This document shows, in pieces, positions 25,821 to 46,520 of a DNA stretch of 64,000 nt. The notes beneath the pieces are model-generated. The model was not told the DNA's origin. It did no database searches and saw nothing but the letters and a program-made list of their open reading frames with translations. Position 1 is the stretch's first letter, and every line of letters begins with the position of its first letter. This stretch comes from an uncultured Eubacteriales bacterium (GTDB taxonomy: Bacteria; Bacillota; Clostridia; Oscillospirales; CAG-382). The stretch lies in NCBI GenBank assembly GCA_934444645.1, contig CAKSCV010000009.1, positions 20,439 through 84,438 on the forward strand, read 5' to 3'. The position numbers were made by a program, and so were the translations under genes.

Positions 25821-28800
25821 TTAAGCGATCAAATCGGAATCGATGACTGACTCGGAATCGGTCGGTTCGTTTTCACGTACAATCAGGTTGTCGAAGCGGA
25901 AGCCGACACCCTTTCCGCCGACCGGGTTTGAGTAGAGTATGAACTGGTCGGTCGCGCTTTCTGTGGCATCTGCTGCGACGGTGAAGTCGAATGAAACGTG
26001 CTTCCATTCGCCGTTTGCGGTGATTTTTCCGCTTGAACCGACAACGTGGTCGCGGTTCGTGCCGCCTGCGTCCTTATATTGCATATTGAACTGCACGACT
26101 CCCGTAAAGCCGGAGTCGATAGCCTCGGACGTACCCGAAGAGGCGAGCATTACGTCGCAATCGACCGAATAGGTGTAGCCGGGCTTGACGGTTATGCGGC
26201 AGGTGCTGCTGGTATAAATGCTCTCCGTGTCGTTTTCGGGAAGAGTCTTGTAGCATTTATTGACTTCGTTGTTCGGGTCAGCGGCAATGCTTGTGACCGA
26301 TTTCCAACCGTAGAAATCAAATGTCGTGTTGTCCGCGTCGGCTTGGAACACGATCTTTCGGGTATCGGGCAGGGGATTTTCGCGAACGATAAGGTTATCG
26401 AACAGATAGCCGACGCCTTTTTCGCTGACCGGGTCGGTGTAGAACCGGAATTGGTCATAGGTGCGCACGGTCGAATCCTTCGGAATGGTGAATTCGAAGG
26501 TCCAATGCGTCCATTGCCCGTTTGCCGAAATCTTACCGGTACGTGCGACTACATGGTCTTTTCGTGCGCCGGTGCTGTCGGCATACGGTACGTTGCAGAG
26601 AATCTCGGCTTTGAAGTTTTGCCCGATGACGTTTGTCGTACCGCTTGACGCGATCATGACGTCGCATTCCACGGAATACGTATAGCCGGGCTTGTAGGTG
26701 GTGGCGTGATCGACATACAGCCAAGTTTTGTCGTCATTTTTCGGAATGTTGCTATAGCAGAGGTTGTCTTTGTCGTTCGGGTCGGCGATGATAGTGAAGT
26801 TGCCGTGTCCGACAAGCGCGCCTTTGCCGCTTTCGCCGTCGGCGTAGATGAGAACCGGACGTGTGTCAGGTGTTTTGTTTTCGGCAACCACGATGGTATA
26901 TGAGCCGCCGCCGACCGTGCCGAGGTTGTCGCCGCTTTCGCGCTTCATGCTTTCCGGCAGCGCAAGTGTTGCCGTAATGCCGTTCGGAATGGTGACGTTC
27001 CAGATAAAGGTCTTGTCGTTCTTCTGATAGCTCCAAGCGGATTCGATAAGACCGTGTGCACTCTTGTAGGTGACATCGATGTCCTTCAAATCCTTGAAGA
27101 AATACGGTTTGACGGTGATTTCATCGAAGCCGGGCTTTGTCGCCTTGATACCGCCTAAGTATTCGAAGAACCAGCGCGCCGCGTTGCCGATGGAGTAGTG
27201 GTTGATGCTGTTTCCGACGCCGACCGTGCCGCCCCAGCTTTCGGTAACTGTACCGCCGCCGCTGGTTTCCACCATGTTGATCAGCGACGGATATGTGGTC
27301 TGTGTGACAAGGCGGTAGGCATCGTCCTCGTAGCCGTAATCGCACAGAACGCTTAAAATGTATTCGGTGGACATGAAGCTGGTGGTGAAGTGGTAGCCGC
27401 TTGCCGCAACATATTCATGAAGCTTTGCAGCAAGTGCCTCACGGTTTTCCGGTTCGGCAAACTCAAAGGCAAGCGCATACACAATACCGCTCTGATTTTT
27501 GGAGGAGTAGTCGTTTTCACCGGCAAGATAATACTTGTTGTTGAAAGCGACGCGTGCCTTTTCATATTCGGCAAGATAGCCTGCCGCTTCGTCGGTCTTG
27601 CCTAAAATTTCTGCCATTTCGGCAGCACGCTTATACATGAGCGTGTAGTAGACATTGCAGAAAAATTCGTCGCTGACCCTGCTCGGCGCTTGGTGGTCGC
27701 CGTAGGTGTAAGTTCCATTGGACGGCAGAACGTCGCCGGAGGCAACCTGGTTTCTGCGGTAATTGATAAGCGTTTTGATTTTTGCGTATTTGGAGGCGAT
27801 GACATCGGTGTTTCCGTAGAATTTGTACAGCGTGAGCGGAACGATATAGTCCTCATCGCCCCAGCCGTAGGTGTAGTCGCCGCCCATTTTACGGCCGGAT
27901 TCCGTCCAGCGCTCTAAGAAGCGGTTGTTGTCCATGTACCAGCAGGCGGTGTTGACAAATACCTGCATATCGCCGTTCCAGAAGTTTTTCTCGCGCGTCG
28001 GGCAGTCCATAGGACCTGTCACGATGTTGGAGCGGTAGGAACGCTTGACGGCGTCCCAAACCATGGCAAGACCGGTATGCGAGGTCTCGAAATCGCCGGT
28101 CACATCGAGGTCGTTGTACATTTCAACCTTCTTGACGGTCGAGATATCATACGTTCCGGAATAGCCGGAAACATAGATATAGCGGAAGCCGGTAAAGGTG
28201 AATTCCGGAATATAAACTTCTTCCTTCGCGCCCTTGCAGATGTAGGTGTCGAGGTTGCGCGCACCGTAGCACGCTCTGCCGTCGGCATAGGTGTCCTTGT
28301 AGAAGAAAACGTCGCCGTATTCCGAAACGTTGGCCGTGTAGCCGAGCGTATCCGAACCGTTTAAGGATTCGCAATAGCGGATGAGGATCTGTTCGCCGGG
28401 CTTGGTATTCTTAAGAATCAACTTTACGCGGCCGGTGGAGTTCAGGCCGAAATCGTAGCAGGTCGATCCGTCGGCAAGCGTAAAGATTGTTTTGGCGGTC
28501 ATTTCGTTGTTGATGCGAACCGGTTCGTAATGCTCTTGGGAGCGCGTTTTACCGGTGACAGAGTGTTCTTCGGCACTTGCCCAGCTTCCGGCGTTTAAGT
28601 CGGAGCACCAATCTGCGGTTTCCAAACGTGCGTCGTAGCGTTCGCCGAACTGGATATCGTTTTCAACGCGCGGTGAAGCGGTGACCTGCCAGTTCTTGTT
28701 CGTGCCGATGACAAGGCTTGTGCCATCGGTGTATTCGATCTCAAGCTGCATCATAAGAGAGGGAATGTTGTTGTAGAAAGCACCCCAGGATTCGCTGTTG

Positions 28801-31031: not shown

Positions 31032-31054
31032 GAATTGCAAACCTCCTTTATCGG

Positions 31055-34000
31055 TTAAGCGTTAAATGCGTTCTGCAAAAAGGACACCGAAAGGTCAAGC
31101 CAACGCGAATAGTCCGCATAGCTCTCACCGAGTCCGACACCGTGGCCGGCATCGGAAAACGCATGGCATTCAGCCGTTTTCCCGGCGGCTTTTAAGGCGG
31201 CGGTAATCGCTTCGGCGTTTTTGGAAAAATTCACAGCCGTGTCCTTTTCGCCGTAAAAGGCGAAAGTGGACGGCATATCGTCTAAATTGTACGTATAGGA
31301 ATATTTGGCGATTTCCGTTTCGTCGTCTTTTTTGTCGCCCAAGAAGATTTCCGGCATGGTGGGATAGGTGCCGTCGCCGAGCGTTACGACCGGATAGCCG
31401 AGAATGCAGGCGTTCGGATGGGCGTTATACGCAGAAATACTGTCGGAAACGGGTGAAACAAAGGTGTTTGCTTTCTCACAGACGAGCATGGCAAGATGTC
31501 CGCCGGCCGAGAAGCCGCAAACAGCGATCTTTTCCGGATCGATTCCGAAGTCTTTTGCATAGCGGCGTACAAACTGCACGCTGCGAATGCCGTCAGCCAA
31601 AATGGCGTTTCCGTCATAGGGCTTGTAGCGGTAGTTGACTACAAAGGCCGAAATGCCCTTTTTGTTGTACGCCTTGGCAATGGCTGTGCCTTCGCTGTCA
31701 TCGGACAGCTGAAAGTAGCCGCCGCCCGGAAAGATGACGACTGCACTGTCTGCGCCGTCGGCGAGATACGCGCGTATGGTCGCCTGTAAAGTGTCCGCCC
31801 CTTTATCGTACGGAATCGTTCCGCTTTCCCAAAGCGCGATTTTTTCGTGACTTGAAATTTTTGCCATATCGATTTCCTCGTTTTCCCTGCCACCGGTGTT
31901 AACGACGCTGTTCGCGGCGTTTTTTGCAAGGTCGGTCTTGGCGGCAATCTCTTTTGCAAGATACGTTCCGAGAGCTTTTGCACCGTTTTTGTCGGGATGC
32001 GCGCCGTCGCTTGTGGTGTAAGAGAACGAGGGCTTGTCAACGAAAAAGACGTTGTTGTCGCCTAAGGCTTCCACAACCGCTTTGATGTCGGCGTTGTGCA
32101 TACCGGCAAAGGGCGATACCGCGAAGATCGGTGTGTTCGGGTATTTTTCGCGTAGCCGGTTCAAGACTGCCGTGTACGCTTCGGTAAAGGCGGCACTGTC
32201 GCTTGTCGGATCGTTGTGTCCGTGATTGATGACAATCGCTGCCGGAGCCGGCGTTTCGGAAAGCGGCATACCGTTATAAAGCGAATCGATGATATCGAGG
32301 CATTTCGGAACGCCGCCGCTGCCGCCGCGCGTCACGCCGCTGGCACCGAAGCCGTTGGTGTAGGAGACGGCGTTCAACCGGTGAGAAGCGACAAACGGAT
32401 ATTCGTTTGAGGCGGAGTTGCTGTCCGGCGTCGAGCCGGTGCCAAGCACGTTGATGCCCTCGGTAATGCTGTCGCCATAGTAGAGAATGACGGGATTGGT
32501 CGGGAGAAGTCCCGTGATTTTGCCGCCATCCTCAACCTCGGGGCATTCCAAAACAAAGCCCATGGCGCTCGTCCATTTTTCTTGGTATTCGTTGAAGCCG
32601 TCCACGATAATGCGGAAGGTGTGCTCGTTCTCGGAAAGGTTCTCGGCAAGGAGCAAGCGTCCCTCTTTGACGGTCGTCATGCGCTTCGGAAAACCTCCGT
32701 CTGTCGACACGGCAATGACCGGAGCGGGAGAGGCCGTCGAATGGAGCTTTAACCAAACCTTGCTTGTGCCGGAAACCTTGAAATAGAATTCCGCGCCCTG
32801 CGAGAAGGTCGCCTTGCAGGTTACGCCGTTCACATCCTTGTCGAACCAACGACCCATATAGCCGACCGGTTCGGAAATGGTTTGGTAGTTAAGCGCATAG
32901 CTTTCGGGCTTGAAATCCTTGTAGATGTCGGATACGCGGCTTGCAATATAATTTGCCAACAGCTTATAGCCGGTGTAGCCGCAGTGAAGCTCGTCGATCG
33001 GCATGTAGCCGCCGATGTTTTCGTAGGTAATGCCGCAGGCATAATAGTTATCGATGACCGGAAGTCCGTACTTTTCACCGAACTTCTTGATAACGCTTAC
33101 AGTTGTTTCCAAAGACGAGCGGTTTCGTTGGGTAGTGACCGGCGGCGTCATCAGAATGATCTGCGCCCTGCCGTTTGTTCGTTCCATACAGGTCTCGACG
33201 ATACGCGCATAGTAGCCGGTCTGGGTCTTGGCGTAGGAGGCGTAGTGAGAAGCCGCAGTATCGGCATCAATGGTGTCTGTTAACCCATTGTTCGTGCCGA
33301 GCATGATGAGAACGATGTCGGTCTCTTCGGAAAGCGCGACTTTCGAAAGCTGATTGTTGTAGTATAATTCTGCCGAATAGCCGCAGCGGCCGGCGTTTTT
33401 GACGTTCGCTCCCGTGATTTCCGCAAGAAAATACGGATAGCTTTCGGCGTGAACGTTCATGGTCCCTGCCGGATTGGAGCCGTAATCGCCCTCCGTCAGG
33501 CTGTCACCGATACAAACGATGTTTTTGCCTTTGAGACTGTTTTCTTCCTCTTGTTCGACTTGTTCGACAAGCGAAATTTCCGCTGCCGCAACCGATGCCG
33601 GGCGAATGCCGTCCGAAAGCGTGCTTTCAAACGCGATAAAGCGGATTTTGGTTGTATTTTCCGGAATGTTCGAGGCGGTAAGCCGTGTAAAGCCGTTTTG
33701 CGGCTCGGCGGTGACGGCGGACGAAGAAAGATACCGCATGCCGTCGTAATAGACCGCATAGAATGCACGTGCGTCCGTGCCGCTTGCCGGCGTGTAGAGG
33801 CAGTAGGCGCGTTTGTCGGCAGCACCGGTAGAAGCGATAAGCTCAGGTGTGCTTTCGTCGCGCACGATCAGAAGGTCGGGCAGCGCCGAAATGTCGGTGT
33901 TGGCCACCCATTCCTCCGCCGCGCCCTCAAGCGCCGGAACGCCGTTCTTGCGCAAGGCAGCTTCCGAAACAGAGGTGGAAAGACCATCCTCCTTGCCGGT

Positions 34001-35107
34001 GTTATATATATCGGAAAGGCTTGCCGTATTCATGCCGATTCCGGCGGCTTCGCTGATATTTAAGGAAGAAGAGATTCCGGCGTCGCTTTCTTCATGTGCT
34101 GTTTTCGCGTTGTTTGCCGCAACGCCGCCGACAATGCTGTTCGCGCCGGTAAGAGCTCCGGTATTTAACGTATTGACAAGGCTTGCTCCGGACTTGTAGC
34201 CGAGATTGAGTCCCACACCGCCGCCGATAAACGCGGCTTTGGACGTAATACTTCCGCCGTTCTTGGCAAGCGTTATCGTTCCGTTGACGTTCGCGCCTGC
34301 AATACCGCCGGCATAACCCGGATAAACGCTTTCTCCGGAAGCAGAGACTTTGCCTTCGTTTTCCACGCGGCAAAGAGAACCGGTGTTGTAGCCTGTAATA
34401 CCGCCGGCAAACACCGAAATGCCCTCGGCAGCCGCCGTGCCCGAGACGGAAGCGGTATTTATGCTGCCGGTGATAGCGCCGCGGTTTTCACCGGCCATGC
34501 CGCCAATGTTTAAGCGGTAAAGAGAGACTTCGGCAGAAAGCTTTCCGTTTGCAGTGCAGCCGCTTACCGAACCGCGGTTTAAGCCGACGATGCCGCCGAT
34601 ATCCGTAAGATAGGCGGTATCGGAAAGCGTCGCTTTGACCGTTGCCTTGCAGTTTCGGATGACCGTTTTTTTGTCGGTCGTGCCGGCGATGCCGCCGGCA
34701 TAGGCGGTAAAGCCGCTGACATCCGGCGTCAGATAGCCGTCGAACGTGCAGTTTTCGATGACGGTCGTGCCCTTGGCGATCGCTGCGATTCCTCCGACAG
34801 CCGTGCTGCCGCTTGCCGTACCGCGAACGGCGACATTCCGGATCTCGGCGTTTTCGGCGGCGCCGAACAGTCCGGCTTTGCCGCTTATACTTACCGTGTG
34901 ACCGCCGCCGTCAAATTTGCCGGTAAACGGTGCGTCGGATGAGCCGATCGGCGTGAAATCGTCGGGTAAGACCGCGTCGGCGGTCAGTTCATAGCTGCCG
35001 CCAAGATCCGAAATTTCGGACAGATCCGTAATCGGCACAGCGCGGCAGACAAGCGACCCGGCGAAAAACAACGCGGCACTGAGTAAGCATGTTGTGATTT
35101 TTCGCAT
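31055..35107 (-). CDS. Secreted multi-esterase: GLUG-like repeats + SGNH hydrolase + CE2-like beta-sandwich/SGNH + alpha/beta-hydrolase esterase, 1350 aa
   Basis: A signal peptide is present (MRKITTCLLSAALFFAGSLVCRA). A repeated GGIAG/GGIVG/GGMAG region (~34090-34930) is followed by GDSLTEG (33488-33508), GDSITEG (32456-32476) and the nucleophile elbow GFSAGG (31499-31516) with HGGG-like FPGGGY. RBS AAAGGAG. The stop lies 23 nt upstream of the GH78 start. Confidence 0.75.
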   Translation of the reverse strand: MRKITTCLLSAALFFAGSLVCRAVPITDLSEISDLGGSYELTADAVLPDDFTPIGSSDAPFTGKFDGGGHTVSISGKAGLFGAAENAEIRNVAVRGTASGSTAVGGIAAIAKGTTVIENCTFDGYLTPDVSGFTAYAGGIAGTTDKKTVIRNCKATVKATLSDTAYLTDIGGIVGLNRGSVSGCTANGKLSAEVSLYRLNIGGMAGENRGAITGSINTASVSGTAAAEGISVFAGGITGYNTGSLCRVENEGKVSASGESVYPGYAGGIAGANVNGTITLAKNGGSITSKAAFIGGGVGLNLGYKSGASLVNTLNTGALTGANSIVGGVAANNAKTAHEESDAGISSSLNISEAAGIGMNTASLSDIYNTGKEDGLSTSVSEAALRKNGVPALEGAAEEWVANTDISALPDLLIVRDESTPELIASTGAADKRAYCLYTPASGTDARAFYAVYYDGMRYLSSSAVTAEPQNGFTRLTASNIPENTTKIRFIAFESTLSDGIRPASVAAAEISLVEQVEQEEENSLKGKNIVCIGDSLTEGDYGSNPAGTMNVHAESYPYFLAEITGANVKNAGRCGYSAELYYNNQLSKVALSEETDIVLIMLGTNNGLTDTIDADTAASHYASYAKTQTGYYARIVETCMERTNGRAQIILMTPPVTTQRNRSSLETTVSVIKKFGEKYGLPVIDNYYACGITYENIGGYMPIDELHCGYTGYKLLANYIASRVSDIYKDFKPESYALNYQTISEPVGYMGRWFDKDVNGVTCKATFSQGAEFYFKVSGTSKVWLKLHSTASPAPVIAVSTDGGFPKRMTTVKEGRLLLAENLSENEHTFRIIVDGFNEYQEKWTSAMGFVLECPEVEDGGKITGLLPTNPVILYYGDSITEGINVLGTGSTPDSNSASNEYPFVASHRLNAVSYTNGFGASGVTRGGSGGVPKCLDIIDSLYNGMPLSETPAPAAIVINHGHNDPTSDSAAFTEAYTAVLNRLREKYPNTPIFAVSPFAGMHNADIKAVVEALGDNNVFFVDKPSFSYTTSDGAHPDKNGAKALGTYLAKEIAAKTDLAKNAANSVVNTGGRENEEIDMAKISSHEKIALWESGTIPYDKGADTLQATIRAYLADGADSAVVIFPGGGYFQLSDDSEGTAIAKAYNKKGISAFVVNYRYKPYDGNAILADGIRSVQFVRRYAKDFGIDPEKIAVCGFSAGGHLAMLVCEKANTFVSPVSDSISAYNAHPNACILGYPVVTLGDGTYPTMPEIFLGDKKDDETEIAKYSYTYNLDDMPSTFAFYGEKDTAVNFSKNAEAITAALKAAGKTAECHAFSDAGHGVGLGESYADYSRWLDLSVSFLQNAFNA

Positions 35108-35295: not shown

Positions 35296-35327
35296 AAAGA
35301 AAAAATGAGCGAAGGGGCGTGCGGCGA

Positions 35328-36215
35328 ATGCAAGAGTTTCGGACAATTCAGATCGACTGTTTACGCTATCTCGGCAGCTATTCCATGGGACACGCCGGGC
35401 AGGGCTGTGTGGATGATAAAACGAAGTTTCTTCCGCGGCATTTTCACGGAAATCAGTATGAGCTTACCTGTATTCTCGACGGCGAGGGTGTTTCCTATTG
35501 CAATGACATACCGCACGAGGTTCATGCGGGCGACGTTTTTGTGTCATTTCCGTATGAATACCATCGGTTGGAGGTCAAGCCGGGAACGGTGCTGTACCAG
35601 CGGTTTGTCACGTTTTCGGTCAATGCGGGAAACTATTTCGAGCGGCTCAACCATTTGTGGCTTGACAACATCGCGCCGGACAAGCGAACCTTTCGCGATG
35701 CGTCTGTGCCGCTGCTCATCGAAGAAATCGCCGGGGAATTGCAGACAGACGATTTATATGCCGCCGAAGTGTTGGAAAATTTGTTGGAAGCCGTGATTTT
35801 GCGTATGCTCCGCGGCATGGCGGACAAAAAACCGCAGAGCCTTTCCGCCAATCCCACCGCTCAAGACCTGTGCCGCCATGTGCAGCATTATATCAATACG
35901 CATTTGTTTACGCTCCACAGTCTGACGGAGGTTGCCGAAGCCGTAAGCTACAATTACAGCTATCTCTCGGCTTGCTTTAAGAAAACCACCGGACAAACCA
36001 TCACCGCCTATTATACAAAAAAACGTTTGGAGGCGGCCAAAGCTCTGATATACGAGCAACAGCTGTCACTTACGGAAATCGCCCGCACACTCGGGTATTC
36101 CGGCATCTATTCGTTCAGCAAAGCGTTTCGCGATTTTTACGGCATTTCGCCGAGCGATTACCGTGACCGGAAATTGCGCGAAAAAGAACGTCTTTATACA
36201 CTTGACCGGTCATAA
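35328..36215 (+). CDS. AraC-family transcriptional regulator
   Basis: The N-terminus is cupin-like and the C-terminus has an AraC double HTH (HSLTEVAEAVSYNYSYLSACFKKTTGQTITAYYTKKRL...LGYSGIYSFSKAFRDFYGISPSDY). The start is ATG 35328, with an alternative GTG at 35319. Confidence 0.8.
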   Translation: MQEFRTIQIDCLRYLGSYSMGHAGQGCVDDKTKFLPRHFHGNQYELTCILDGEGVSYCNDIPHEVHAGDVFVSFPYEYHRLEVKPGTVLYQRFVTFSVNAGNYFERLNHLWLDNIAPDKRTFRDASVPLLIEEIAGELQTDDLYAAEVLENLLEAVILRMLRGMADKKPQSLSANPTAQDLCRHVQHYINTHLFTLHSLTEVAEAVSYNYSYLSACFKKTTGQTITAYYTKKRLEAAKALIYEQQLSLTEIARTLGYSGIYSFSKAFRDFYGISPSDYRDRKLREKERLYTLDRS

Positions 36216-37763: not shown

Positions 37764-37803
37764 AACGCGCTGTCCGAAATCGGTTTCCGGACAGCGCGTT
37801 TTT
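37764..37803. terminator. Bidirectional terminator between uxaC and the GRE operon
   Basis: AACGCGCTGTCCG / CGGACAGCGCGTT forms a stem of about 13 bp with an inner GAAA/TTTC stem. TTTT follows. Confidence 0.7.
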
Positions 37804-37804
37804 C

Positions 37805-38614
37805 TTATTTGCTTTGAAGAATTCTGTTCAGTTCGTCGAGCTTTTCTTTGGACGGAACAGCAAAGGACGTCATTTTTCTCTCAAGCGCCGTATATTTGTG
37901 TTCACCCATTTTGTGATAGGGCAAAAGCTCGGTTTTTATCGGCTTGAAAGCGTCAAGAAACGCCTTGACGGCTTTCATGTCTTCTGCCGAATCGTTGACG
38001 TTCGGAATGATTGGAATTCGTATCCAAACGTTTGCCTTAACCTCTAAGAGCTTTCGCAGGTTACTTAAAATCGGTTTGTTGGAAACGCCGACAAATTCTT
38101 TGTGTACGTCATCATTCAACGTTTTTATATCATACAGAAATAAGTCGGTATAAGGAAGCACCCTCTCAAAATTCTCCCATGGAACGAATCCTGCCGTATC
38201 GATGGCGGTATGGATGTGCTCTTGCTTGCACTTTTGTAAGATCTCGCACAGGAAATCGGTTTGCAGCATGCATTCGCCGCCTGAAAAGGTTACACCGCCG
38301 CCGGAGGTTTCGTAAAACGGTCTGTCTTTCTGTATCGTATCAAAAACCTCTTCGACCGTATATTCCTTTCCGCAGATCTGCTTTGCGTCATGAAAACAGA
38401 CAAATTCGGTATTCTTTTCGGTGATGCCTTTGCATCGGCCGCAGCCGGTGCATTTGTCCTTGTAGAATAATATTTGCGGCTTTGGTGATTGACTTTCGGG
38501 ATTGTGGCACCACTTGCATTTCAGATTACAACCCTTGAAAAAAACAGTGGTTCGTATGCCCGGACCATCGACAAACGAATTTCTTTGTATATCAAAAATA
38601 ACTGCTGTATTCAT
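37805..38614 (-). CDS. Glycyl-radical enzyme activating protein (radical SAM)
   Basis: The N-terminus reads VDGPGIRTTVFFKGCNLKCKWCHNPE, with CX3CX2C at 38507-38530. A single Cys-rich insert follows (CTGCGRC...C...C), then GGVTFSGGE. The start is ATG 38614, 8 nt after AGGTGG; an alternative GTG at 38626 abuts the GRE stop. Confidence 0.88.
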   Translation of the reverse strand: MNTAVIFDIQRNSFVDGPGIRTTVFFKGCNLKCKWCHNPESQSPKPQILFYKDKCTGCGRCKGITEKNTEFVCFHDAKQICGKEYTVEEVFDTIQKDRPFYETSGGGVTFSGGECMLQTDFLCEILQKCKQEHIHTAIDTAGFVPWENFERVLPYTDLFLYDIKTLNDDVHKEFVGVSNKPILSNLRKLLEVKANVWIRIPIIPNVNDSAEDMKAVKAFLDAFKPIKTELLPYHKMGEHKYTALERKMTSFAVPSKEKLDELNRILQSK

Positions 38615-38626
38615 CACGGCTGCCAC

Positions 38627-40750
38627 CTATTTTGTGTGCGTTGTTCTTTGTATGATCTCGTCCTGTAAGCCTTCGTTCAAAAACACGAAATAGTCGGAAA
38701 AGCCCGAAACCCGGACGCGCAGATTTTTGTATTTGTCCGGCGTTTTCTTCGCATTGACTAAGTCTTCTTTGGAAACATAGGTAAGCTGAAAATGTGTTCC
38801 ACCCATTTTGAAGTAGGTTTCAAACAGGTAAACAAGTTTTTCAAAGCTTTCATCATTTTTTACTAATTTCTCATCAAGCAGCACATTTGTAACGCTTGGT
38901 CCTGTCAAAATCGCATAAGGGTCGCATTTTGCAACAGAGGATAACAGAGCCGTAAGTCCGTTTCTGTCCTTGCCCTCCGATTGACCGATTCCGAAATTCA
39001 ACATATCGCCGTCAAAGCGCCCGTCGGGCGTCGCCTTGGTATGATCGCCGAAAAATTTGTGATGCTCGTTGTATCCGACAAGATTTCCGAAGACAAGCTT
39101 TTTGTGCAAATAGTTATCGCCGGTGTTCCACCTGTAAAGACTTTCAAAAAATCTGTGCGCCATATTGTTGGAAAGGTCGTCATCGTTGCCGAAAAACATG
39201 CCTTTTTTTAAGAGGTATTCCCGTAATTCGCCGTATCCGTTCCAGTTGTTCTGTAACGCTTCAATAAGCTGCTTCATGGTTACCCGTTTTTCATCGAAAA
39301 CCAACTGCTTTGTCACGGCAAGGGAATCGATGACGTTGGATATGCCGATAAGCAAGCCTACGGCGACATAGGTATCCGTGCCGCCTTGTGTAACGCTTTT
39401 GGCGTTTTGGATGCAGCCGTCAAGAAACATGTTGCTTACCAAATTGCAGTCGCGGCTGCGTATGGACTGCAAGCCTTTTCCGATTTCGTCGGCTTCGTGC
39501 AGATCCTTGTACAGTTCCTCTTGAAATACCGTGTAAAACTCATCGAAGCTTTGGACGTTCTGAATATCGCCGCTGCGGCTAAAAAACGTATTCTGCACAC
39601 AGCGCACAATATTCATCGGATCAAAGCCGAACACGATGCCGCCGGGAAGCGCGATCTCATTGCAGCCGATCATGGTATAGCTTACGGCTTTGCTGTATGG
39701 AAAACCGGTATATTCGGTCAAGCCCTTAATGCGCGGTTCGTCGTTTACAAAGGCAATGCGTTTGTTCGGATCGTTCCGCTCGCAGTTCATCATGTAACGA
39801 AGCACTTCGTGCGGCGTTTTGGCTGTCCAGCGCAGTGAGATCTGCGGAATCCATGTCGGCAGTTCCATAAGCGAATCAACAATCAGTTTTGATAGTTCGT
39901 TGAAGCCGTCCTCACCGTTTTCCAGATAGCCGCCGACGCAAAAGTGTGATTCGCCGCCGCGGTAAAAACGGTCGGAGGATTTGGGGATCCTTGCCTGCAG
40001 CATTAAAAACAGTTCCTGCAAATACGCAGACGCTTCTTCGTTGGTCAGAACGCCGCTTTCGATATCGGCTTTGTAAAAACGATATAAATACCGGTCAATT
40101 AACCCGATACTGTCCGGAATTAAGCCATAGCAGACGTATAAGGATAAAATAGCCTCATAAAAGCTTTTTGCAGGCTTTTCCGGAACATTTTTAAGGGAAC
40201 GGGATAATCTCTCCAAATTTTCTTTATACGTTGCATTGGATACGTTTTTTGAAAGAGCCAGCGCTTTTTCGGAGCATTTGTGAGCCCAGTCGATCACAGC
40301 GTCGCAAATATCCGTCTGGGTTTCCAGAAATTGAAGGGCTTTTTCGTCATCCTTATGATTTTCGATGGATTCTTGGATGATTTTCTTAATACCGACAATA
40401 CCGCTGTTAATGATTTTCCCGAAATCGCCTGCGGAATGCTGCCATTCAAACGTAAGTAAATTGTCAACCGGTTTGTTGTAGAAATTTTTGTCAGCGATTC
40501 CGAAATTGACGTGTCCTTTTCTGTTGAATATGTCTCCTTCCACACTGCCGTCGAAGGTCAATAACCCTGTAAAGGCGGATTCTTCAACAAGAAGCGGTTC
40601 CTGATTCCGGATATATTCGCAGACGCGTTTTGCGGACATTTTTACCGGCGATAAAAATAAGTCGCACCGGTCGTATTCCGTTTTGACCGGATAAACATAC
40701 ATTTGCCCGGCAACGGTTTTTTCGACTAACTTTTTGATTCTCTCATTCAT
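38627..40750 (-). CDS. Glycyl-radical enzyme, PFL2/dehydratase-like, unusually short (707 aa), unknown substrate
   Basis: The C-terminal glycyl motif is LRVRVSGFSDYF (Gly codon 38702-38704). An ATPDGR motif is present, and the Cys loop reads YTMIGCNEIALPGG (Cys codon 39662-39664). The N-terminus begins NERIKKL. The start is ATG 40750, 10 nt after GAGAGGAG; the track start at 40759 is a GTG 1 nt after that RBS. Confidence 0.88.
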   Translation of the reverse strand: MNERIKKLVEKTVAGQMYVYPVKTEYDRCDLFLSPVKMSAKRVCEYIRNQEPLLVEESAFTGLLTFDGSVEGDIFNRKGHVNFGIADKNFYNKPVDNLLTFEWQHSAGDFGKIINSGIVGIKKIIQESIENHKDDEKALQFLETQTDICDAVIDWAHKCSEKALALSKNVSNATYKENLERLSRSLKNVPEKPAKSFYEAILSLYVCYGLIPDSIGLIDRYLYRFYKADIESGVLTNEEASAYLQELFLMLQARIPKSSDRFYRGGESHFCVGGYLENGEDGFNELSKLIVDSLMELPTWIPQISLRWTAKTPHEVLRYMMNCERNDPNKRIAFVNDEPRIKGLTEYTGFPYSKAVSYTMIGCNEIALPGGIVFGFDPMNIVRCVQNTFFSRSGDIQNVQSFDEFYTVFQEELYKDLHEADEIGKGLQSIRSRDCNLVSNMFLDGCIQNAKSVTQGGTDTYVAVGLLIGISNVIDSLAVTKQLVFDEKRVTMKQLIEALQNNWNGYGELREYLLKKGMFFGNDDDLSNNMAHRFFESLYRWNTGDNYLHKKLVFGNLVGYNEHHKFFGDHTKATPDGRFDGDMLNFGIGQSEGKDRNGLTALLSSVAKCDPYAILTGPSVTNVLLDEKLVKNDESFEKLVYLFETYFKMGGTHFQLTYVSKEDLVNAKKTPDKYKNLRVRVSGFSDYFVFLNEGLQDEIIQRTTHTK

Positions 40751-40769
40751 TCTGCTCACACTCCTCTCA

Positions 40770-41501
40770 CTATCGGATGGAATAAGCGCCGTCTATAATC
40801 ACGGTTTCGCCGCAGATCATTCTTGCTTTTTCGTCCAAAAGATACATGGCAAGCGCGGCGACCTCATCGATCGAGGCAAACCGGCCGTAAGGGATCCGGT
40901 CATGCTTCATGGAATCGCCCTCGTGCCAGTTGTTCATTTCGGTCGCTACCGGTCCGGGCGCAATGCCGTTTATGGTGATCCCGTCCGAAGCAAACATTTT
41001 GCCCCAGCCGCGTGTCAGCCCTGTCGCCAGAATTTTGGAACCGCCGTATGCTCCGAAAACCGGTTCTTCGCCGGCAACCGACGTAATGTTCAGAATGTTG
41101 CCTTTTACGGCGTTTTTCAGCATATAGTTGACCGATGCCTGCATGGTGAAAAACACCGCGCTTGCGTTGACATCGATGACCTCCTGCCATTCCTTAGCCG
41201 TTGTCTGCAAAAGACTCCTTTTGTCCCATTCGCTCCGCCGGGCAAAAATGCCGGCATTGTTTATCACAATGTCAAGACCGCCGAGCTTTTCAGCTGCTTC
41301 GCGTATTTTTTCTTCGGCTTTATCGAATTCCGCCGCGTCCCAAACCATGGGGAACACGTTTTTGCCAAGCTCTGCTGCCGCACGTTCAAGTGTTTCTTTC
41401 TTTCTGCCGGTGATAACGACCGCATCGCCGTTTTGCACGAGCTTTTTGGCAATGGCATAGCCGATTCCGCGGCTTGCGCCGGTTACGAGCGCTTTTCTCA
41501 T
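40770..41501 (-). CDS. SDR-family oxidoreductase (FabG-like)
   Basis: Rossmann motif TGASRGIG, NNAG, and catalytic S...YGGSK are present. It is the first gene of the operon, 19 nt upstream of the GRE start, with RBS AAAGGAAAAGGTGG. Confidence 0.85.
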   Translation of the reverse strand: MRKALVTGASRGIGYAIAKKLVQNGDAVVITGRKKETLERAAAELGKNVFPMVWDAAEFDKAEEKIREAAEKLGGLDIVINNAGIFARRSEWDKRSLLQTTAKEWQEVIDVNASAVFFTMQASVNYMLKNAVKGNILNITSVAGEEPVFGAYGGSKILATGLTRGWGKMFASDGITINGIAPGPVATEMNNWHEGDSMKHDRIPYGRFASIDEVAALAMYLLDEKARMICGETVIIDGAYSIR

Positions 41502-41533
41502 ATTTATCCCACCTTTTCCTTTGATTTACTATG

Positions 41534-41561
41534 ATTATATAACGATTTCTGAAAAAGTAAA
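41534..41561 (-). promoter_or_regulatory. Candidate promoter of the SDR-GRE-activase operon
   Basis: On the minus strand TTTACT (41556-41561) is followed by 16 nt and TATAAT (41534-41539). The -35 is weak. Confidence 0.35.
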
Positions 41562-41602
41562 TGCTTGTAAAGGTTGAAATTTGTCTGAAACGGACATTTT
41601 CC

Positions 41603-41631
41603 TTGAAATTTTCAAATGTTTGTGCTATAAT
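41603..41631 (+). promoter_or_regulatory. sigma-A-type promoter of the divergent AraC gene
   Basis: TTGAAA (41603-41608), 17 nt, then an extended -10, TGcTATAAT (TATAAT = 41626-41631). The 9-mer TTGAAATTT occurs twice, at 41574 and 41603. Confidence 0.55.
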
Positions 41632-41668
41632 GCAAAAAAGCAAATGAAGAAGGATAGGTGTTCAAAGG

Positions 41669-42493
41669 ATGCAGAAAATAAACTATGATTTTCCGGATAT
41701 GCCGTATATTAACGACGCAAGGTTCTTTTGCGATACCCTGCCGAAAGATAAGCCGTATAGCGCGCTTGTACCACGAAATCACGAAAGTCTTGCATTTGTT
41801 ACAAACGGAACACTCGGCTATACAAAAAACGGAAAAACCGTTCCGGTCAAAGCAGGACAAATCGTCTATATCGCAAAAGGTTCACTTGACGAAAGCGGCG
41901 CGTATCACTGTGATGCGGTGTCCTATATGGCGGTCAATTTCAACTTCGAGAAAAATGCCGCCTCTTTGCGCAGCGCGTTTCCCTTCAAAACGGTCTGTGC
42001 CGATAAAAACACCTATCCGTACGAAAAGCTGTTTCAAAAAGCCGTGAATGAGTATAGTCTGAATCTGCCGGGAACTCGGATGATATGCAATGGGATCTTG
42101 TGCCAGATGATCGGTATGCTGTATAATGACCTTCGCTTTGACAACATCAATTACAAAATGGCAGGGAAAATTGAAACTGCACTTGATTATTTAAACCGGA
42201 ATTACAGCCGTCCGGATTTGAAGATCGGCGAGCTTGCGGAGATGACCGGTATCAGCGAAAAGCATTTCCGACGTTTGTTTTGGGACATATATCAAAAGAC
42301 GCCGCATGAATTTTTGCGGGATTTTCGCTTGGATAAGGCAGAGCTTCTGCTTTTGAACACGTCAAAACCGATTTCCGCCATCGCCCTTGGCTGCGGCTTT
42401 TCGGATATGTATTCCTTCAGCCACTGCTTTAAGCGGCATTTCGGCGTACCGCCGAAGGTATACCGGGAAAATCGGACGTATCCTTACGGATAA
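41669..42493 (+). CDS. AraC-family transcriptional regulator (divergent from the GRE operon)
   Basis: The C-terminus has a double HTH (LKIGELAEMTGISEKHFRRLFWDIYQKTPHEFLRDFRL...LGCGFSDMYSFSHCFKRHFGVPPKVY) and the N-terminus looks like a cupin. Confidence 0.8.
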   Translation: MQKINYDFPDMPYINDARFFCDTLPKDKPYSALVPRNHESLAFVTNGTLGYTKNGKTVPVKAGQIVYIAKGSLDESGAYHCDAVSYMAVNFNFEKNAASLRSAFPFKTVCADKNTYPYEKLFQKAVNEYSLNLPGTRMICNGILCQMIGMLYNDLRFDNINYKMAGKIETALDYLNRNYSRPDLKIGELAEMTGISEKHFRRLFWDIYQKTPHEFLRDFRLDKAELLLLNTSKPISAIALGCGFSDMYSFSHCFKRHFGVPPKVYRENRTYPYG

Positions 42494-42577: not shown

Positions 42578-43783
42578 TTAATAATCGATTTTCGAATTCT
42601 TTTTCTTTCTTGCCACATACAGAATGATGAAGATGATAAGGGCAAGAAGCAGAATGAGTGCCAACAGATACACCGGGCTGTCGAACATAGAGGTGCTGCG
42701 GATCTGAAGCCACAGATCCTCCATGTGGCTGTTGGCTTCGTCGCCAAGCATCACAAATGTTTCGGAATTCTCAAGAACCTCGTCGCTCGGCATGATCCGT
42801 TCGTCAACGCCCACAATTTCCATCGCCTCTGTCTGCGGCGTGAAGTACGAGATGAATTCGCAGTTGGCGACGGCGATATCGGTTTCGCAAAGGAAGTTGA
42901 TGAAGGCTTCGGCGGCATCCTTGTTGGTCGTGCCTTTGGGAATGCAGATCGAGTCGATAAACTGGTTGACGCCCTCTTTGGGATAGGAAAACGCAAGATC
43001 TTCGTTGCGTTCCATCATGGTAAGGCAGTCGCCGGCATAGTAGGGAGCGGCATAGGCGTTCTCGTTGGCCATTTTGTCAAATGTCTGATCCATGGCGTAC
43101 ATCTGATTGATGGCTTTCTGTGCTTTGAGCGCATCGGCAGCCTTGTCGATCTCTTCAAGATTTTCCGTGTTGAGGGAATAGCCGAGCTTTTTGAGTGCGA
43201 TACCGAAGGCGTCGCGGCTGTTGCCGAACATAAGGACCTTGCCCTTGAACTTTTCGTTCCACAGGATGTCCCAAGTGCTTGCTTCTTCGGCTGTCACGTG
43301 CTTTGTGTTGTACACAAGACCCACCATGCCCCAGGTGTAGGGGACGGTGTAGGCTCCTTCGGGATCAAAATCGGTATAGCGGTATTTGTCGTCGATGAGC
43401 GAGATGTTCGGGATCTTGTCAAAATCGAGCTTTTCCAAACGATCCTCGTCGATAAGACGGGCGATCATGTAGTCGGACGGGATGATGATGTCGTACTGTG
43501 AACCGCCGTGAACCACCTTGGCATACATATCCTCGTTGGTATCAAACAGCGTGTAGTTGACCTTGATGCCGGAAATTTCTTCAAATTCCTTGATGACATC
43601 AACGCTGTCGTCCGAACCGTCGGAGATGTATTCGCCCCAGTTGTAGACGTTTAAGGTGATTCCCTTGTCACGGAAGGCGGCATAGTAGGCTTCGTCCTCG
43701 ACGGAAACCTCGGCAAAGGCGGCAAAGCTGAAGGTCATAGCCGCCAAAAGGGCAAGCAAGACGGAAAATACGGTTTTTTTCAT
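42578..43783 (-). CDS. potD: Spermidine/putrescine ABC transporter substrate-binding protein with an extra C-terminal TM helix
   Basis: The core is PotD-like (LNVYNWGEYISDG, YDIIIPSDYMIARL). The N-terminal signal peptide has no lipobox Cys (AAFAEVS), and the C-terminus is hydrophobic. Confidence 0.85.
   Translation of the reverse strand: MKKTVFSVLLALLAAMTFSFAAFAEVSVEDEAYYAAFRDKGITLNVYNWGEYISDGSDDSVDVIKEFEEISGIKVNYTLFDTNEDMYAKVVHGGSQYDIIIPSDYMIARLIDEDRLEKLDFDKIPNISLIDDKYRYTDFDPEGAYTVPYTWGMVGLVYNTKHVTAEEASTWDILWNEKFKGKVLMFGNSRDAFGIALKKLGYSLNTENLEEIDKAADALKAQKAINQMYAMDQTFDKMANENAYAAPYYAGDCLTMMERNEDLAFSYPKEGVNQFIDSICIPKGTTNKDAAEAFINFLCETDIAVANCEFISYFTPQTEAMEIVGVDERIMPSDEVLENSETFVMLGDEANSHMEDLWLQIRSTSMFDSPVYLLALILLLALIIFIILYVARKKKNSKIDY
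42581..42679 (-). other. C-terminal transmembrane anchor of PotD
   Basis: The last 33 aa are SPVYLLALILLLALIIFIILYVARKKKNSKIDY, a hydrophobic helix of about 20 aa followed by a basic tail. Confidence 0.7.
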
Positions 43784-43811
43784 AGATTTATCTCCTTAAT
43801 ATGTGATAGGT

Positions 43812-44615
43812 TTAGGCTTTTTTGGCAAGCCCGGCAGCCTTGTTCTTTTCGTTTTCAAACTTCATATCCACAAGATTGTAAACGATGAGTACGGCAAGCA
43901 CACCGACGAAAAGCAGTGTGGAAAGCGCGTAAATGGTCGGCGTGACCTGCTTTTTGGTCATGCTGTAAATGACCACCGGCAGGGTTTGCGAGGTTGTGCC
44001 GGAGGTGAAATAGCTGATGACGAAATCGTCGATCGAGTAGGTGAGTGCCATCAGAAATCCGGAAACGATGCCAGGCATGATTTCGGGAATTACCACTTTG
44101 AAAAACGCCTGCCGGCGGTTGCAGCCGAGATCCATGGCGGCTTCATACAAACTGACGTTTAACTGCCGCAGTTTCGGCAGCACGCTTAAAACCACCGTCG
44201 GCACACAGAAGGTGACGTGCGCCAAAATCAGCGTCGCAAAGCCGGACGTGAATTTGAAGTAAGCGAACAACAGCATGAGCGAGATACCGGTCACGATCTC
44301 CGGATTGAGAATCTGAATATAGGTGAGCGTGCGCATAACGCCCTTGGACATCTTTTTCATGCTGTTCATGCCGAAGGCCGCCGTCGTGCCTAAAATGGTC
44401 GCAAGCACCGATGCGACCAGCGCGACGATGAGCGTGTTGATAAACGCGCCGATGATGGCTTGGTTGCGGAACAATTCCGCATACCACTTGGTGGTAAAGC
44501 CTGTCCAGGTCGCACCCTTGCTGGTGTTGAACGAAAAGACGATAAGAATCAGAATCGGAATATACAGAAAGGCAAAGCAAATGCCGGTGTATATGCGTGA
44601 AAATGTCTTTTTCAT
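43812..44615 (-). CDS. potC: Spermidine/putrescine ABC transporter permease
   Basis: The protein has six TM segments and an EAA-like loop (LYEAAMDLGCNRRQAFFKVVIPEI). Its ATG overlaps the potB stop by 4 nt. Confidence 0.85.
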   Translation of the reverse strand: MKKTFSRIYTGICFAFLYIPILILIVFSFNTSKGATWTGFTTKWYAELFRNQAIIGAFINTLIVALVASVLATILGTTAAFGMNSMKKMSKGVMRTLTYIQILNPEIVTGISLMLLFAYFKFTSGFATLILAHVTFCVPTVVLSVLPKLRQLNVSLYEAAMDLGCNRRQAFFKVVIPEIMPGIVSGFLMALTYSIDDFVISYFTSGTTSQTLPVVIYSMTKKQVTPTIYALSTLLFVGVLAVLIVYNLVDMKFENEKNKAAGLAKKA

Positions 44616-45433
44616 TTGATTGAATCCTCCATTTCATCACTGTCAAACTGGTTGAGGATTCCCATACTGATAAGCACCACGATCATCAGCACCAGCGAAG
44701 TTGCCGAGCCGACATGGAAGCCGGTTCCCTTGAGCTTGAACTGTTCTTCAATGAGGTCGCCGATGAGATAGCAGTCGCTGCCGCCCAAAAGGCGCGAAAT
44801 GATGAACGTGCTCACACACGGCACAAACGTCATGGTAATGCCGGTTGCAATGCCCGGAAAGCTTAACGGCACGACCACCTTGCGGATAACCACCGGCATA
44901 CTGCATCCGAGGTCTTGGGCAGCCTCGATGACGTGCCGGTCGATCTTCGTCATAATCGAAAACAGCGGCAGAATCATAAACGGCAGATAGTTGTAGACCA
45001 TGCCTAAAATGACCGCACCCGAGGTGTTGATAAGCTTTGCCGCAGGCAGTCCGAAAAAGGCAAGAAGGTTGTTGATGATGCCGTTGTCCTCAAGAATGGT
45101 CATCCACGCATACGTGCGCAGAAGAAAGTTCATCCACATCGGCAGCATGACAAGCAGCATAAACACCCGCTGTACGGCTGCCGATTTGCGGCTCATGATG
45201 TAGGCAAGCGGATAGGCGACAAGCAGGCAGATAAGCGTTGCGACAAACGCAAGGCACAGCGATTTGATAAGTACCGGCAGATAGGCGCTGGAATTGGCAA
45301 TGTTGTCAAACGTAAAACGGCCGGTGGCGTTGTCCGAGAAGGCGTAGTAGATAACTAAGACAAACGGAACGATCGTGAAGATCAAAATCCAGATAATGTA
45401 GGGAATGGCGGAAATTTTAGAGCCCCGCTTCAT
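44612..45433 (-). CDS. potB: Spermidine/putrescine ABC transporter permease
   Basis: An EAA-like loop is present ([23 protein letters not shown]). The start was trimmed to ATG 45433 ([12 protein letters not shown]) behind GGGAGG. The 54-aa N-terminal extension in the track overlaps potA. Confidence 0.85.
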
Positions 45434-46520
45434 TTGCCGCACCTCCCTCGAGGTACTCCGCGTCAGGCGTGTCCGAAGCATAGCTCTTGTGCATGATGTG
45501 AATGTCCTCCGGTGTAAGCGCCATGCCGATAAAGGAGCCTGCCTCGGCGGCTTTGGTGGAATGGATCTTCCATTTCGTGCCAAAGCTGTCCACAATCATT
45601 TCAAAGTGAACGCCCTTGAAGGTGACGGTTTCAACCGTGCCGTCTATGGTCGTGCCGTCCGGCTCTTTGACGCGGATGTCTTCGGGACGGATGACCACGT
45701 CCACCGGCTCCATCTTGTCAAAGCCCTTGTCCACACAGACAAAGTGCTTGCCGGCAAATTCAACGTCATAGTCGTCGTGCATAATGCCCGAAACAATGTT
45801 GCTTTCACCGATAAAGCGCGCCACAAAGGCGTTGGCCGGTTCGTTGTAGATGTCCTCGGGCGTGCCGATCTGGTCGATACAGCCGCGGTTCATGACGACG
45901 ATGCGGTCGCTCATGGTGAGAGCTTCTTCTTGGTCGTGAGTAACGTAAATGAAGGTGATGCCGAGCTGTTGTTGCATCCGCTTCAACTCGATCTGCATTT
46001 CTTTGCGTAATTGTAAGTCAAGCGCACCGAGCGGCTCGTCGAGAAGCAACATCCGCGGATGGTTGATGAGCGCCCGTGCAATGGCAACGCGCTGCTGTTG
46101 ACCGCCGGAGAGAAAATCCACTTTCTTTGCGCCGTAGCCTTTGAGGTTGACAAGCTCAAGCATTTCGAGAACGCTCTGTTTTATCTCTTTTTCGGGCGTT
46201 TTTTTCAAACGCAGACCGAAAGCAATGTTTTCAAATACGTTCAAATGGGGGAAAAGTGCGTACTTTTGGAAAACCGTGTTGACCTGCCGTTTGTACGGCG
46301 GAATTTTGTTGATCAGCTTTCCGTCAAAGAAGACCTGTCCTTCGTGCGGCTCGATAAAGCCGCCGATGATGCGAAGCGTCGTTGTTTTTCCGCATCCGGA
46401 GGGACCCAGCAAGGTAATAAATTCCTTGTCATGGATATCGAGATCGATACCCTTCAATACCTGCTCATCGTCAAAATTCATGACAATGTCTTTCAAGCGA
46501 ACGATGACACTTTTGTCCAA
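45417..46520 (-). CDS. potA: Spermidine/putrescine ABC transporter ATPase
   Basis: Walker A (GPSGCGKTT), the ABC signature ([15 protein letters not shown]), Walker B (LLLDEP) and a C-terminal TOBE-like domain are all present. The start is TTG, 6 nt after GGAGGTG. Confidence 0.9.

Follow-up and report, generated by a model that had tools for sequence, protein, structure and literature searches.

Glycyl-radical enzymes (GREs) perform the difficult anaerobic steps behind the gut metabolites trimethylamine (TMA), H2S, p-cresol, skatole and propionate. A 64-kb stretch of contig CAKSCV010000009.1 from an uncultured Eubacteriales bacterium (hereafter the window) contains a self-contained four-gene module that consists of an AraC regulator, an NADP-type reductase of the short-chain dehydrogenase/reductase (SDR) family, a short and divergent GRE, and a GRE activase. 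Profile scores and alignments place this GRE in a distinct short family outside the characterised enzyme families. The module is distinct within a known superfamily by virtue of its shortened GRE N-terminus, CNE motif, remodelled contact residues, predicted one-cluster activase and SDR partner. The reading that we favour, tentatively and with slightly less than even confidence, is that the module carries out an AraC-controlled, compartment-free radical elimination followed by NADPH reduction, acting on a new sugar-derived diol or polyol. Its features are arranged in the window as follows:

40770-41501, minus strand: SDR, 243 amino acids (aa), gene 1 of the operon, a classical short-chain dehydrogenase/reductase.
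38627-40750, minus strand: GRE, 707 aa, PFL2/eliminase type, with G683 (radical), C363, N364, E365 and H105.
37805-38614, minus strand: activase, 269 aa from the ATG, a GRE-activating radical-SAM enzyme with a shortened ferredoxin-like insert.
41669-42493, plus strand: AraC/XylS-family regulator, 274 aa, divergent from the operon.
41534-41561, minus strand: operon promoter preceding the SDR (TTTACT, 16 nt, TATAAT; 10/12 versus consensus).
41603-41631, plus strand: araC promoter (TTGAAA, 17 nt, TG-TATAAT; 11/12, sigma-70-like, with an extended -10 TG).
41580-41600, no strand: conserved 21-bp block TTTGTCTGAAACGGACATTTT, a candidate AraC operator between both promoters.
41574-41582, plus strand: first copy of TTGAAATTT, in a non-conserved intergenic stretch and probably a chance match.
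41603-41611: second copy of TTGAAATTT, coinciding with the araC -35 element.
37764-37800, minus strand: intrinsic terminator (16-bp stem with 9 GC pairs, 5-nt loop, T-rich tail).

A check of the open reading frames (ORFs) confirmed all four genes at the coordinates that the sequence-only reading had given them. The tight minus-strand SDR-GRE-activase operon with a divergent AraC gene that it described is likewise present, with gaps of 19 bp (SDR-GRE) and 12 bp (GRE-activase) and a divergent SDR/araC region of 167 bp, and this region, in which it had called a strong promoter, holds promoters on both the araC and the SDR sides. Translation of the GRE starts at the ATG at 40750, with AGGAG 10 nt before it, and the SDR has the ribosome-binding site (RBS) AAGGTGGG 7 nt before its start. 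Longer GTG-start ORFs are listed for the GRE (from 40759) and the activase; the ATGs carry proper RBSs, and the GTG at 40759 is not the true GRE start because the homologues are all 707 aa long. The terminator lies between the convergent activase and uxaC genes and closes the operon. Pfam assigns PFL-like and Gly_radical domains to the GRE, Radical_SAM and Fer4_12 to the activase, adh_short to the SDR, and HTH_18 to the regulator.

The GRE displays the domains of its superfamily (PF02901 PFL-like, 270 bits; PF01228 Gly_radical, 75 bits), the glycine motif RVSG683F, and the Cys loop MIGC363NE365. The Gly and the catalytic Cys are at least 90% conserved over 113 GREs. An AlphaFold2 model built from 113 diverse GREs (pLDDT 93.3, pTM 0.93) confirms the GRE fold in Foldseek comparisons, where all PFL2-type eliminases and isomerases are recovered (TM 0.78-0.85; identity 19-25%) and no single one is outstanding; the top match is the 1,2-propanediol dehydratase 5i2g, and glycerol dehydratase (GD) lies within the top five.

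Within the superfamily, the enzyme is far from every curated model. Its top NCBIfam match, HpsG, reaches 283 bits where 1000 are required, and even TIGR01774, a broad model for the PFL2-3 subfamily, is missed (253 versus 678). No curated NCBIfam equivalog is reached (score/cut-off: CutC 240/1050, HypD 263/1100, HpsG 283/1000, HpfG 200/1000, indoleacetate decarboxylase 196/1100, 4-hydroxyphenylacetate (HPA) decarboxylase 150/1150, PflD 185/1109, PflB 72/994). The closest PDB entry by sequence is 6lon (6e-65), and HpsG scores 223 bits. The GRE is approximately equidistant from HpsG, CutC, IslA, GD, HpyG, HypD, propanediol dehydratase (PD), HplG, YbiW and PflD, with E-values of 1e-65 to 1e-40 and identities of about 20-30% to solved GREs. 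A June 2026 review of all characterised GREs contains no SDR-linked enzyme of ~700 aa (PMC13450708), and no paper describing the cassette was found in the literature searched. The earlier description of the GRE as uncharacterised therefore holds, and comparison with characterised GREs places it inside no isofunctional family. Surprise at this is tempered because many GRE clades are still unassigned, according to the same review (PMC13450708).

An HMMER search of 1.84 billion cluster representatives returned 5427 relatives of the GRE. Only about seven representatives (700-713 aa) align from residue 1, at 723-400 bits and 48-33% identity, the alignments of three "cousins" (701-712 aa) begin near residue 90, and generic GREs score at most 290 bits. 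A 90%-identity collection holds well over a hundred clusters that are 80-89% identical to the GRE, every one of them 707 aa long. Looking up the cluster members of these relatives gave no informative protein names and no cultured host, and a plasmid search for relatives yielded only generic GREs with less than 30% identity. Against solved GREs, P0137, a short cousin, reaches 299 bits and the window GRE 223; these scores indicate that the family is a long branch. A 785-aa relative, P0148, has CNN in place of CXE and IKVGGY in place of RVxG, and is possibly a non-canonical member.

Active-site residues were compared with those of Clostridium butyricum GD by pairwise phmmer and by MAFFT profile alignment. 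Both alignments agree that His105 corresponds to GD His164, Cys363 to Cys433, Glu365 to Glu435, and Gly683 to Gly763. The C363-N364-E365 triplet is invariant in the core and extended family, as is His105. A CXE motif with a substrate-bound Glu is common to all GRE eliminases and isomerases (PMC13450708), and the His160-Glu436 pair of HypD is essential (PMC7077986). By alignment, the window GRE carries this acid-base core signature of eliminases and isomerases, CXE plus a His partner. It lacks GD residues 276-282 and 464-473 and ~68 of the N-terminal 160, and is 80 aa shorter overall. The positions of GD His281/Ser282, Tyr339, Asp447 and Tyr640 map ambiguously: loop lengths differ by 2-7 residues and the alignments disagree, Ser282 and Asp447 being matched by phmmer but not by the MAFFT profile alignment. 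When P0137 is used as a bridge to alignments of HypD, PD, CutC and HplG, Asp213 probably falls at the position of the essential HypD Asp278 (His in GD and PD), and Glu267 probably at that of GD Tyr339, HypD Phe340 and a CutC Phe.

Column statistics against 95 generic GREs single out Trp103, Asp213, His269, Tyr275, Asn364 and Gln590 as family-specific, with Asn, Val and Pro as the generic residues at the changed positions His269, Asn364 and Gln590, respectively. Within the core family (at least 65% identity), FEWQHS, PDSIGLIDRY, RGGESHFCVGGY, MIGCNEIALPGGIVFGFDP and FGNLVGYNEHHKF are invariant. Because this residue set does not vary, the core would seem to be a single isofunctional group whose pocket is polar and rich in acidic residues. 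Asp377 is changed already in a 57% paralogue and a 48% relative. The polar and acidic family-specific residues at predicted contact positions (D213, E267, H269, N364 and Q590) would favour radical elimination from a new polar substrate. Two other substrate classes were considered. A sulfonate was rejected, as the sulfonate-holding triad is missing: IslA Arg189, Gln193 and Arg678 align with Leu98, Glu102 and Gly559. A hydrophobic substrate (e.g. a steroid), which would explain the missing transporter, was set aside less firmly, given that the family-specific contact residues are polar or acidic.

The long branch, the higher score of P0137 to solved GREs, and the replacement of otherwise conserved residues (Pro by Gln590, Asn by His269, Val by Asn364) could also mean that the GRE performs some other chemistry, be it decarboxylation, C-C cleavage or an unknown reaction, or that the cassette is not one functional unit. 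We consider this very improbable. The CXE motif and its His partner form the eliminase/isomerase signature, small-subunit genes like those of HPA decarboxylase (HPAD) or benzylsuccinate synthase (BSS) are absent, and the genes are tightly linked, an arrangement that is conserved and accompanied by shared signals.

In architecture, the cassette most resembles the dha operon of C. butyricum (B12-independent glycerol dehydratase DhaB1, activase DhaB2, 1,3-propanediol dehydrogenase DhaT and regulators DhaS/DhaA), which converts glycerol to 3-hydroxypropanal and then to 1,3-propanediol; the logic proposed for the cassette is the same. Both systems lack a microcompartment and combine a regulator that has an AraC-type DNA-binding domain with a GRE, its activase and a reductase that forms an alcohol at the expense of NAD(P)H, and the CXE motif and the His164 equivalent of GD are conserved. 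The differences are nevertheless extensive. The window GRE is 29% identical to GD (206-213 bits) and scores below the TIGR01774 cut-off, so that the two do not form one isofunctional family, and it is without the N-terminal residues and loops noted above. An SDR stands where dha has an iron-containing alcohol dehydrogenase, a one-component AraC protein where dha has a PocR-domain sensor protein and a separate AraC-family regulator, and the window activase has ligands for one auxiliary cluster instead of two.

This dha-like layout bears on a different reading, in which the GRE is a very divergent B12-independent glycerol or 1,2-propanediol dehydratase and the SDR replaces DhaT or propanol dehydrogenase, yielding 1,3-propanediol or 1-propanol without a microcompartment. 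The Foldseek ranking, the conservation of GD His164, Cys433 and Glu435, and the recovery of Ser282 and Asp447 in one of the two alignments agree with such an enzyme. Freely diffusing substrates would explain the missing transporter, and the links to rhamnosidase, fucosidase and RhaA genes described below point to lactaldehyde or 1,2-propanediol. However, identity to GD and PD is just 23-29%, no nearer than to CutC, HypD, HpsG or IslA. The Ser282 and Asp447 matches are not reproduced by MAFFT, the GD His281/Ser282 loop is 7 residues shorter, the GD Tyr339 position is apparently Glu, Asn instead of Val separates the Cys from the Glu, and Asp377 is not retained even in relatives that are 48-57% identical. 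We therefore regard a divergent dehydratase as unlikely, if worth keeping in view.

The PD of Roseburia inulinivorans (5I2A/5I2G), the top structural match (TM 0.81-0.83), is tied to rhamnose/fucose use (PMC13450708), and rhamnose/fucose genes likewise recur beside the window GRE family. Identity between the two enzymes is 23-24%, though, and the Cys-loop and β-strand residues differ. The cassette also departs from the loci of GRE-associated microcompartments (GRM), in that shell proteins, aldehyde dehydrogenase and phosphotransacylase are absent in the window and related loci. Pfam annotation, which covered nearly every large ORF in the window, found no genes for a microcompartment shell, aldehyde dehydrogenase, phosphotransacylase, pyrroline-5-carboxylate (P5C) reductase, or sulfite or TMA handling, in agreement with the earlier observation that the usual partners of GRE pathways are missing.

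The SDR partner (Pfam adh_short/adh_short_C2, 162-164 bits) contains the complete classical catalytic set, with TGASRGIG, NNAG, a catalytic Ser and YGGSK. An Arg lies in the Gly motif and a basic GRKK stretch ("ITGRKKE") follows β2, where an acidic residue is absent. Under established cofactor rules for SDRs, such features mark NADP(H) enzymes that usually act as reductases, and we infer that the window SDR prefers NADP(H) and is a reductase. No NCBIfam equivalog reaches its cut-off for this protein, its closest solved relatives are FabG-like, and the homologue search returns only "SDR family NAD(P)-dependent oxidoreductase". Many copies of the SDR that are 97-100% identical occur elsewhere, versus 89-93% identity for the top GRE match.

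The proposed pairing, in which an NAD(P)H-dependent reductase takes the product of a GRE eliminase, recalls HypD and P5C reductase. The His-Glu pair is common to both systems, and an Asp probably occupies the position of HypD Asp278. Unlike HypD, the window GRE scores 263 versus a cut-off of 1100 for the HypD model, its reductase belongs to another family, and proline-binding residues such as Phe340 are absent, that position probably being Glu267. IslA/IseG and HpsG, which sulfoacetaldehyde or DHPS oxidoreductases supply, offer a further possible model, in which a reductase makes the alcohol used by the GRE; HpsG is also the top sequence match. The missing Arg/Gln triad sets the window GRE apart from these enzymes, and the sulfite reductase and TRAP transporter genes of their pathways are absent.

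The window cassette might follow the reverse order, the NADPH-dependent SDR producing an alcohol from an α-substituted aldehyde or ketone (perhaps an amino-ketone or keto-sugar) from which the GRE then eliminates OH or an amine. Sulfoacetaldehyde reductase feeds isethionate to IslA by the same logic, the SDR is gene 1 of the operon in most core loci, and NADP-type SDRs would normally be reductases. The candidate contact positions are rich in carboxylates (D213, E267, E365 and D377), which would fit an ammonium group in the manner of CutC and HypD, and GREs of relatives lie beside GFO/IDH/MocA enzymes, an epimerase-type SDR and RhaA, which make or reduce keto-sugars. Yet gene order varies among relatives, no sink is encoded for the carbonyl product, which would require one here too, amine-handling or transport genes are not conserved, and a polyamine-type ABC transporter accompanies the cassette in this species only. 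Reduction ahead of elimination accordingly strikes us as improbable.

A scan of GTDB with one genome per species identified 43 loci, 40 of which are core loci with a GRE at least 61% identical to that of the window. Core hosts are metagenome-assembled genomes (MAGs) of uncultured Clostridia, Eubacteriales or Oscillospiraceae from the guts of humans (Hadza, Nepal and others), buffalo and chicken; one Lentisphaeria MAG carries a GRE at 34% identity. Core-locus counts cover only loci with readable flanks, with locus L007 added by inspection. With the upstream side readable, a divergent AraC gene is present in 25/29 core loci and an SDR directly upstream in about 19/29, and with the downstream side readable an activase follows in 20/27. 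Where both flanks are readable, 13 of 20 core loci have any adjacent SDR and 10 of 20 the full quartet, which thus recurs in many genomes.

Some loci without an SDR have other oxidoreductases. In L035, the product of the gene beside araC (7832-8935) is an aldo-keto reductase with a fused 4Fe-4S dicluster (ferredoxin) domain and may substitute for the SDR, and in L032 a GFO/IDH/MocA enzyme lies beside araC. Clustering of the flanking ORFs over the related loci revealed no further conserved gene, transporter, shell protein or pathway partner, and two enzymes must therefore suffice. The association extends to distant relatives: the Lentisphaeria locus L041 reads GRE-activase-SDR-cupin (GRE 34%, activase 50% and SDR 52% identical), P0132 (GRE 33%) has AraC with GRE-activase-SDR and adjoins a CUT1-type ABC system, P0126 (GRE 38%) is encoded with an epimerase-type SDR and an activase in the order GRE, SDR, activase, and P0122 (GRE 44%) lies in a RhaA-AraC-GRE-SDR-GFO/IDH/MocA cluster. 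From these neighbourhoods, the pairing of a GRE with an oxidoreductase is taken to be old, persisting at 33-44% GRE identity. Gene order is GRE-activase-SDR in L041, L008, L017 and P0132, and GRE-SDR-activase in L026 and L042. L017 (5469-9881) contains tandem paralogues of this GRE, as 74% and 56% identical copies, and L022 displays the same pattern. L008 (10001-22300) is a "GRE island" in which three different GRE genes have their own activases and AraC-like regulators.

The activase scores 331 bits to TIGR02494, versus a cut-off of 174, and contains the radical-SAM motif CNLKCKWC (CX3CX2C). The two CX2CX2CX3C motifs typical of PFL2-type activases (TIGR02494), which serve two auxiliary clusters, are not present. 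Alignment with relatives reveals that the window protein has lost 21 residues of the ferredoxin-like insert, whose two Cys motifs are retained in the activase relatives of L024, L017, L020, L041 and L036; the single Cys-rich insert noted from the sequence is therefore correct. The cysteines left in the insert are a CX2CX2C and, in an "FVC" stretch, the counterpart of the final Cys of motif 2. Where a ferredoxin fold holds two clusters, one of them has exactly these ligands, and the insert could accordingly still accommodate a single auxiliary [4Fe-4S] cluster. The trimmed activase is in this sense a natural test of what auxiliary clusters do.

The regulator has a double helix-turn-helix at its C-terminus (HTH_18, 85 bits, and HTH_AraC). 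Its N-terminal 167 aa match Cupin_2, EutQ and AraC_binding, all below threshold, and are predicted to form a weakly cupin-like sensor domain. Alignment of 14 related intergenic regions reveals conservation of both promoters, the RBS and one 21-bp block. The operon promoter elements CATTTAC and TATAAT are conserved, as are the araC -10 and TTGAA, and TTTGTCTGAAACGGACATTTT is the sole block outside the promoters to reach at least 80% conservation (AATGTC..TTT.AAACA is its consensus, read in the direction of the operon). It lies ~20 bp upstream of the operon -35 element, and this 41580-41600 block is likely to be the AraC operator. An inverted repeat, TGTC-N7-GACA (41582-41596), was flagged within the block on the plus strand by the terminator scan.

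The sequence-only reading had pointed instead to two copies of TTGAAATTT in the intergenic region. Both copies are present; the pair is not conserved in related loci, and the 9-mer is not over-represented, with 4 copies in the window versus 2.3 expected and 17 of 100 shuffles reaching 4. The pair was consequently rejected as an operator and replaced by the 41580-41600 block. Relative to MAGs of the same or a sister species (L053 and L023), the flanks of the cassette are 90-98% identical, whereas identity falls to 73-81% over araC plus the intergenic region and over the 5′ portion of the GRE gene (window 40025-40624 and 41524-42423), a pattern that looks like allelic exchange or recombination inside the cassette.

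The glycan context of the cassette had been taken as a hint at a sugar-derived substrate. The window encodes two GH78-type proteins, a 1350-aa multi-esterase, GH116-like and GH20-like proteins, and UxaC (611 bits). The uxaC/GH78/esterase neighbourhood adjoins the cassette only in the same species, so that this part of the argument is not supported; what remains, weakly, is that carbohydrate genes are the commonest immediate neighbours over unrelated genomes, and that 6-deoxyhexose genes recur. The neighbours differ from genome to genome. Glycoside hydrolases include GH78 near the window cassette, a GH29 fucosidase (L030), GH123 (L019), GH20 (L037), GH2 (L036) and GH13 (L007); other carbohydrate neighbours are NamZ (L015 and L047), a PfkB kinase (L004), ROK/NagB (L016), 2-keto-3-deoxy-6-phosphogluconate aldolase (L029), a heparinase-like lyase (L020) and a GH39-like protein (L041). 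In L043, a complete five-domain GH78 α-L-rhamnosidase (7178-9859) lies directly upstream of, and on the same strand as, a 32% GRE relative, and in L063 a true L-rhamnose isomerase, RhaA (246-1496; 670 bits), precedes the AraC-GRE-SDR-GFO cluster of a 44% relative. 6-Deoxyhexose genes (GH78 twice, GH29 and RhaA) thus occur in four independent lineages, a recurrence that by rough estimate exceeds chance and that we treat as a lead.

Sugar-derived substrates also bring YbiW/PflD into the comparison. These enzymes have the CXE motif, comparable structural similarity to the window GRE and, with what we propose here, a sugar-derived substrate in common with it; the GRE scores far under the family cut-off, and phosphosugar-handling partners are absent. 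An isomerase of the YbiW/PflD/HplG type would open a cyclic ether or amine (e.g. an unphosphorylated anhydro- or deoxy-sugar) to give a keto product for the SDR. Isomerases have the CXE motif and the first reaction steps in common with eliminases (PMC13450708), and HplG, PflD and YbiW are structurally as near as the eliminases. GFO/IDH/MocA enzymes, one with a weak match to levoglucosan dehydrogenase, accompany relatives of the GRE. That family includes anhydro-sugar dehydrogenases. Set against this are the PflD score of 185 bits versus a cut-off of 1109 and the phosphotransferase system, kinase and aldolase genes of anhydroglycolysis, which are neither in the cassette nor conserved nearby. 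Ring opening by an isomerase is, in our estimation, a distant prospect.

For the favoured elimination-reduction pathway, we infer the following chemistry and order of steps. The activase, using S-adenosylmethionine and its [4Fe-4S] cluster, would place a radical on Gly683. The radical would move to Cys363, whose thiyl form would abstract H from the carbinol carbon of a small polar substrate that bears a leaving group beside this carbon; a vicinal diol or polyol is the likeliest such compound. Glu365, tuned by His105, would deprotonate the hydroxyl, and loss of the neighbouring group in a 1,2-elimination would give a carbonyl product for the NADP(H)-type SDR to reduce. The resulting alcohol would be excreted, so that the module would act as an electron sink. 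AraC would sense the substrate through its cupin-like domain and activate the operon from the 41580-41600 block. Since there is no dedicated transporter or downstream enzyme, the substrate would be small, permeant or made in the cell, and the product excreted. In this reading the substrate would lie outside the known GRE substrates. Our guess is something small, a diol or polyol derived from sugar; a lactaldehyde- or 1,2-propanediol-like compound of the L-rhamnose/L-fucose branch is one possibility.

Several points weigh against this pathway. Substrate-contact positions apart from His105, Cys363, Glu365 and Gly683 map ambiguously, in loops that differ by 2-7 residues. The SDR is missing beside the GRE in about one third of core loci, where it may be dispensable or replaced, and its place as operon gene 1 suits a reductase-first pathway equally well. 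Several contexts are purely housekeeping (EF-Tu/EF-G, MatE, Fe-hydrogenase, flavodoxin, PolC, gdhA/Trk, PBP5/ligA), and the sugar and 6-deoxyhexose enrichment is a weak one of small numbers, taken without a proper background model. Neither the cluster-member look-up nor the GTDB scan found a cultured host, and the chemistry is read from sequence. On balance, we put the chances at about even that the family has a new GRE substrate (e.g. a 6-deoxyhexose- or sugar-derived polyol or amino-polyol held by an unusually acidic pocket), that it works in a two-enzyme, compartment-free NADPH-SDR pathway widespread in uncultured Clostridia of human and animal guts, and that one auxiliary Fe-S cluster suffices for its activase.

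The GRE family is abundant, with hundreds of clusters at 90% identity, in human, buffalo and poultry gut assemblies. As it is restricted to uncultured Clostridia, only a sequence-led approach reaches it, and the minimal four-gene cassette is well suited to heterologous reconstitution. Identification of the substrate would add a GRE function and reveal an unrecognised electron sink, or a route of cross-feeding, among bacteria that degrade fibre in the gut. If the activase prediction is true, one auxiliary Fe-S cluster is enough for this activase class.

Next to the cassette, a PotABCD-like polyamine ABC transporter (42578-46520, minus strand; ATPase 560 bits to the spermidine/putrescine model, with a binding protein resembling PotD) has its end 85 bp from the stop codon of araC. 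This transporter was considered as the substrate uptake part of the cassette and rejected, as it accompanies the cassette only in the same species. On the other side, the minus-strand interval 25821-35107 encodes a 1739-aa GH78 rhamnosidase with a carbohydrate-binding module and the 1350-aa esterase protein, of GDSL lipase/Abhydrolase_3/Peptidase_S9 type, and a second AraC regulator lies at 35319-36215. Together, the GH78, esterase, uxaC and AraC genes look like a set for the degradation of rhamnogalacturonan or a pectin-type glycan. Housekeeping genes of the window include asnA, queA, alr, uvrB, a branched-chain amino-acid carrier and exopolysaccharide glycosyltransferases. An unusual 788-aa protein encoded at 20928-23294 (plus strand) fuses Mur-ligase middle and C-terminal domains to an amino-acid kinase, and its gene adjoins those for an Asp/Glu racemase and alanine racemase.

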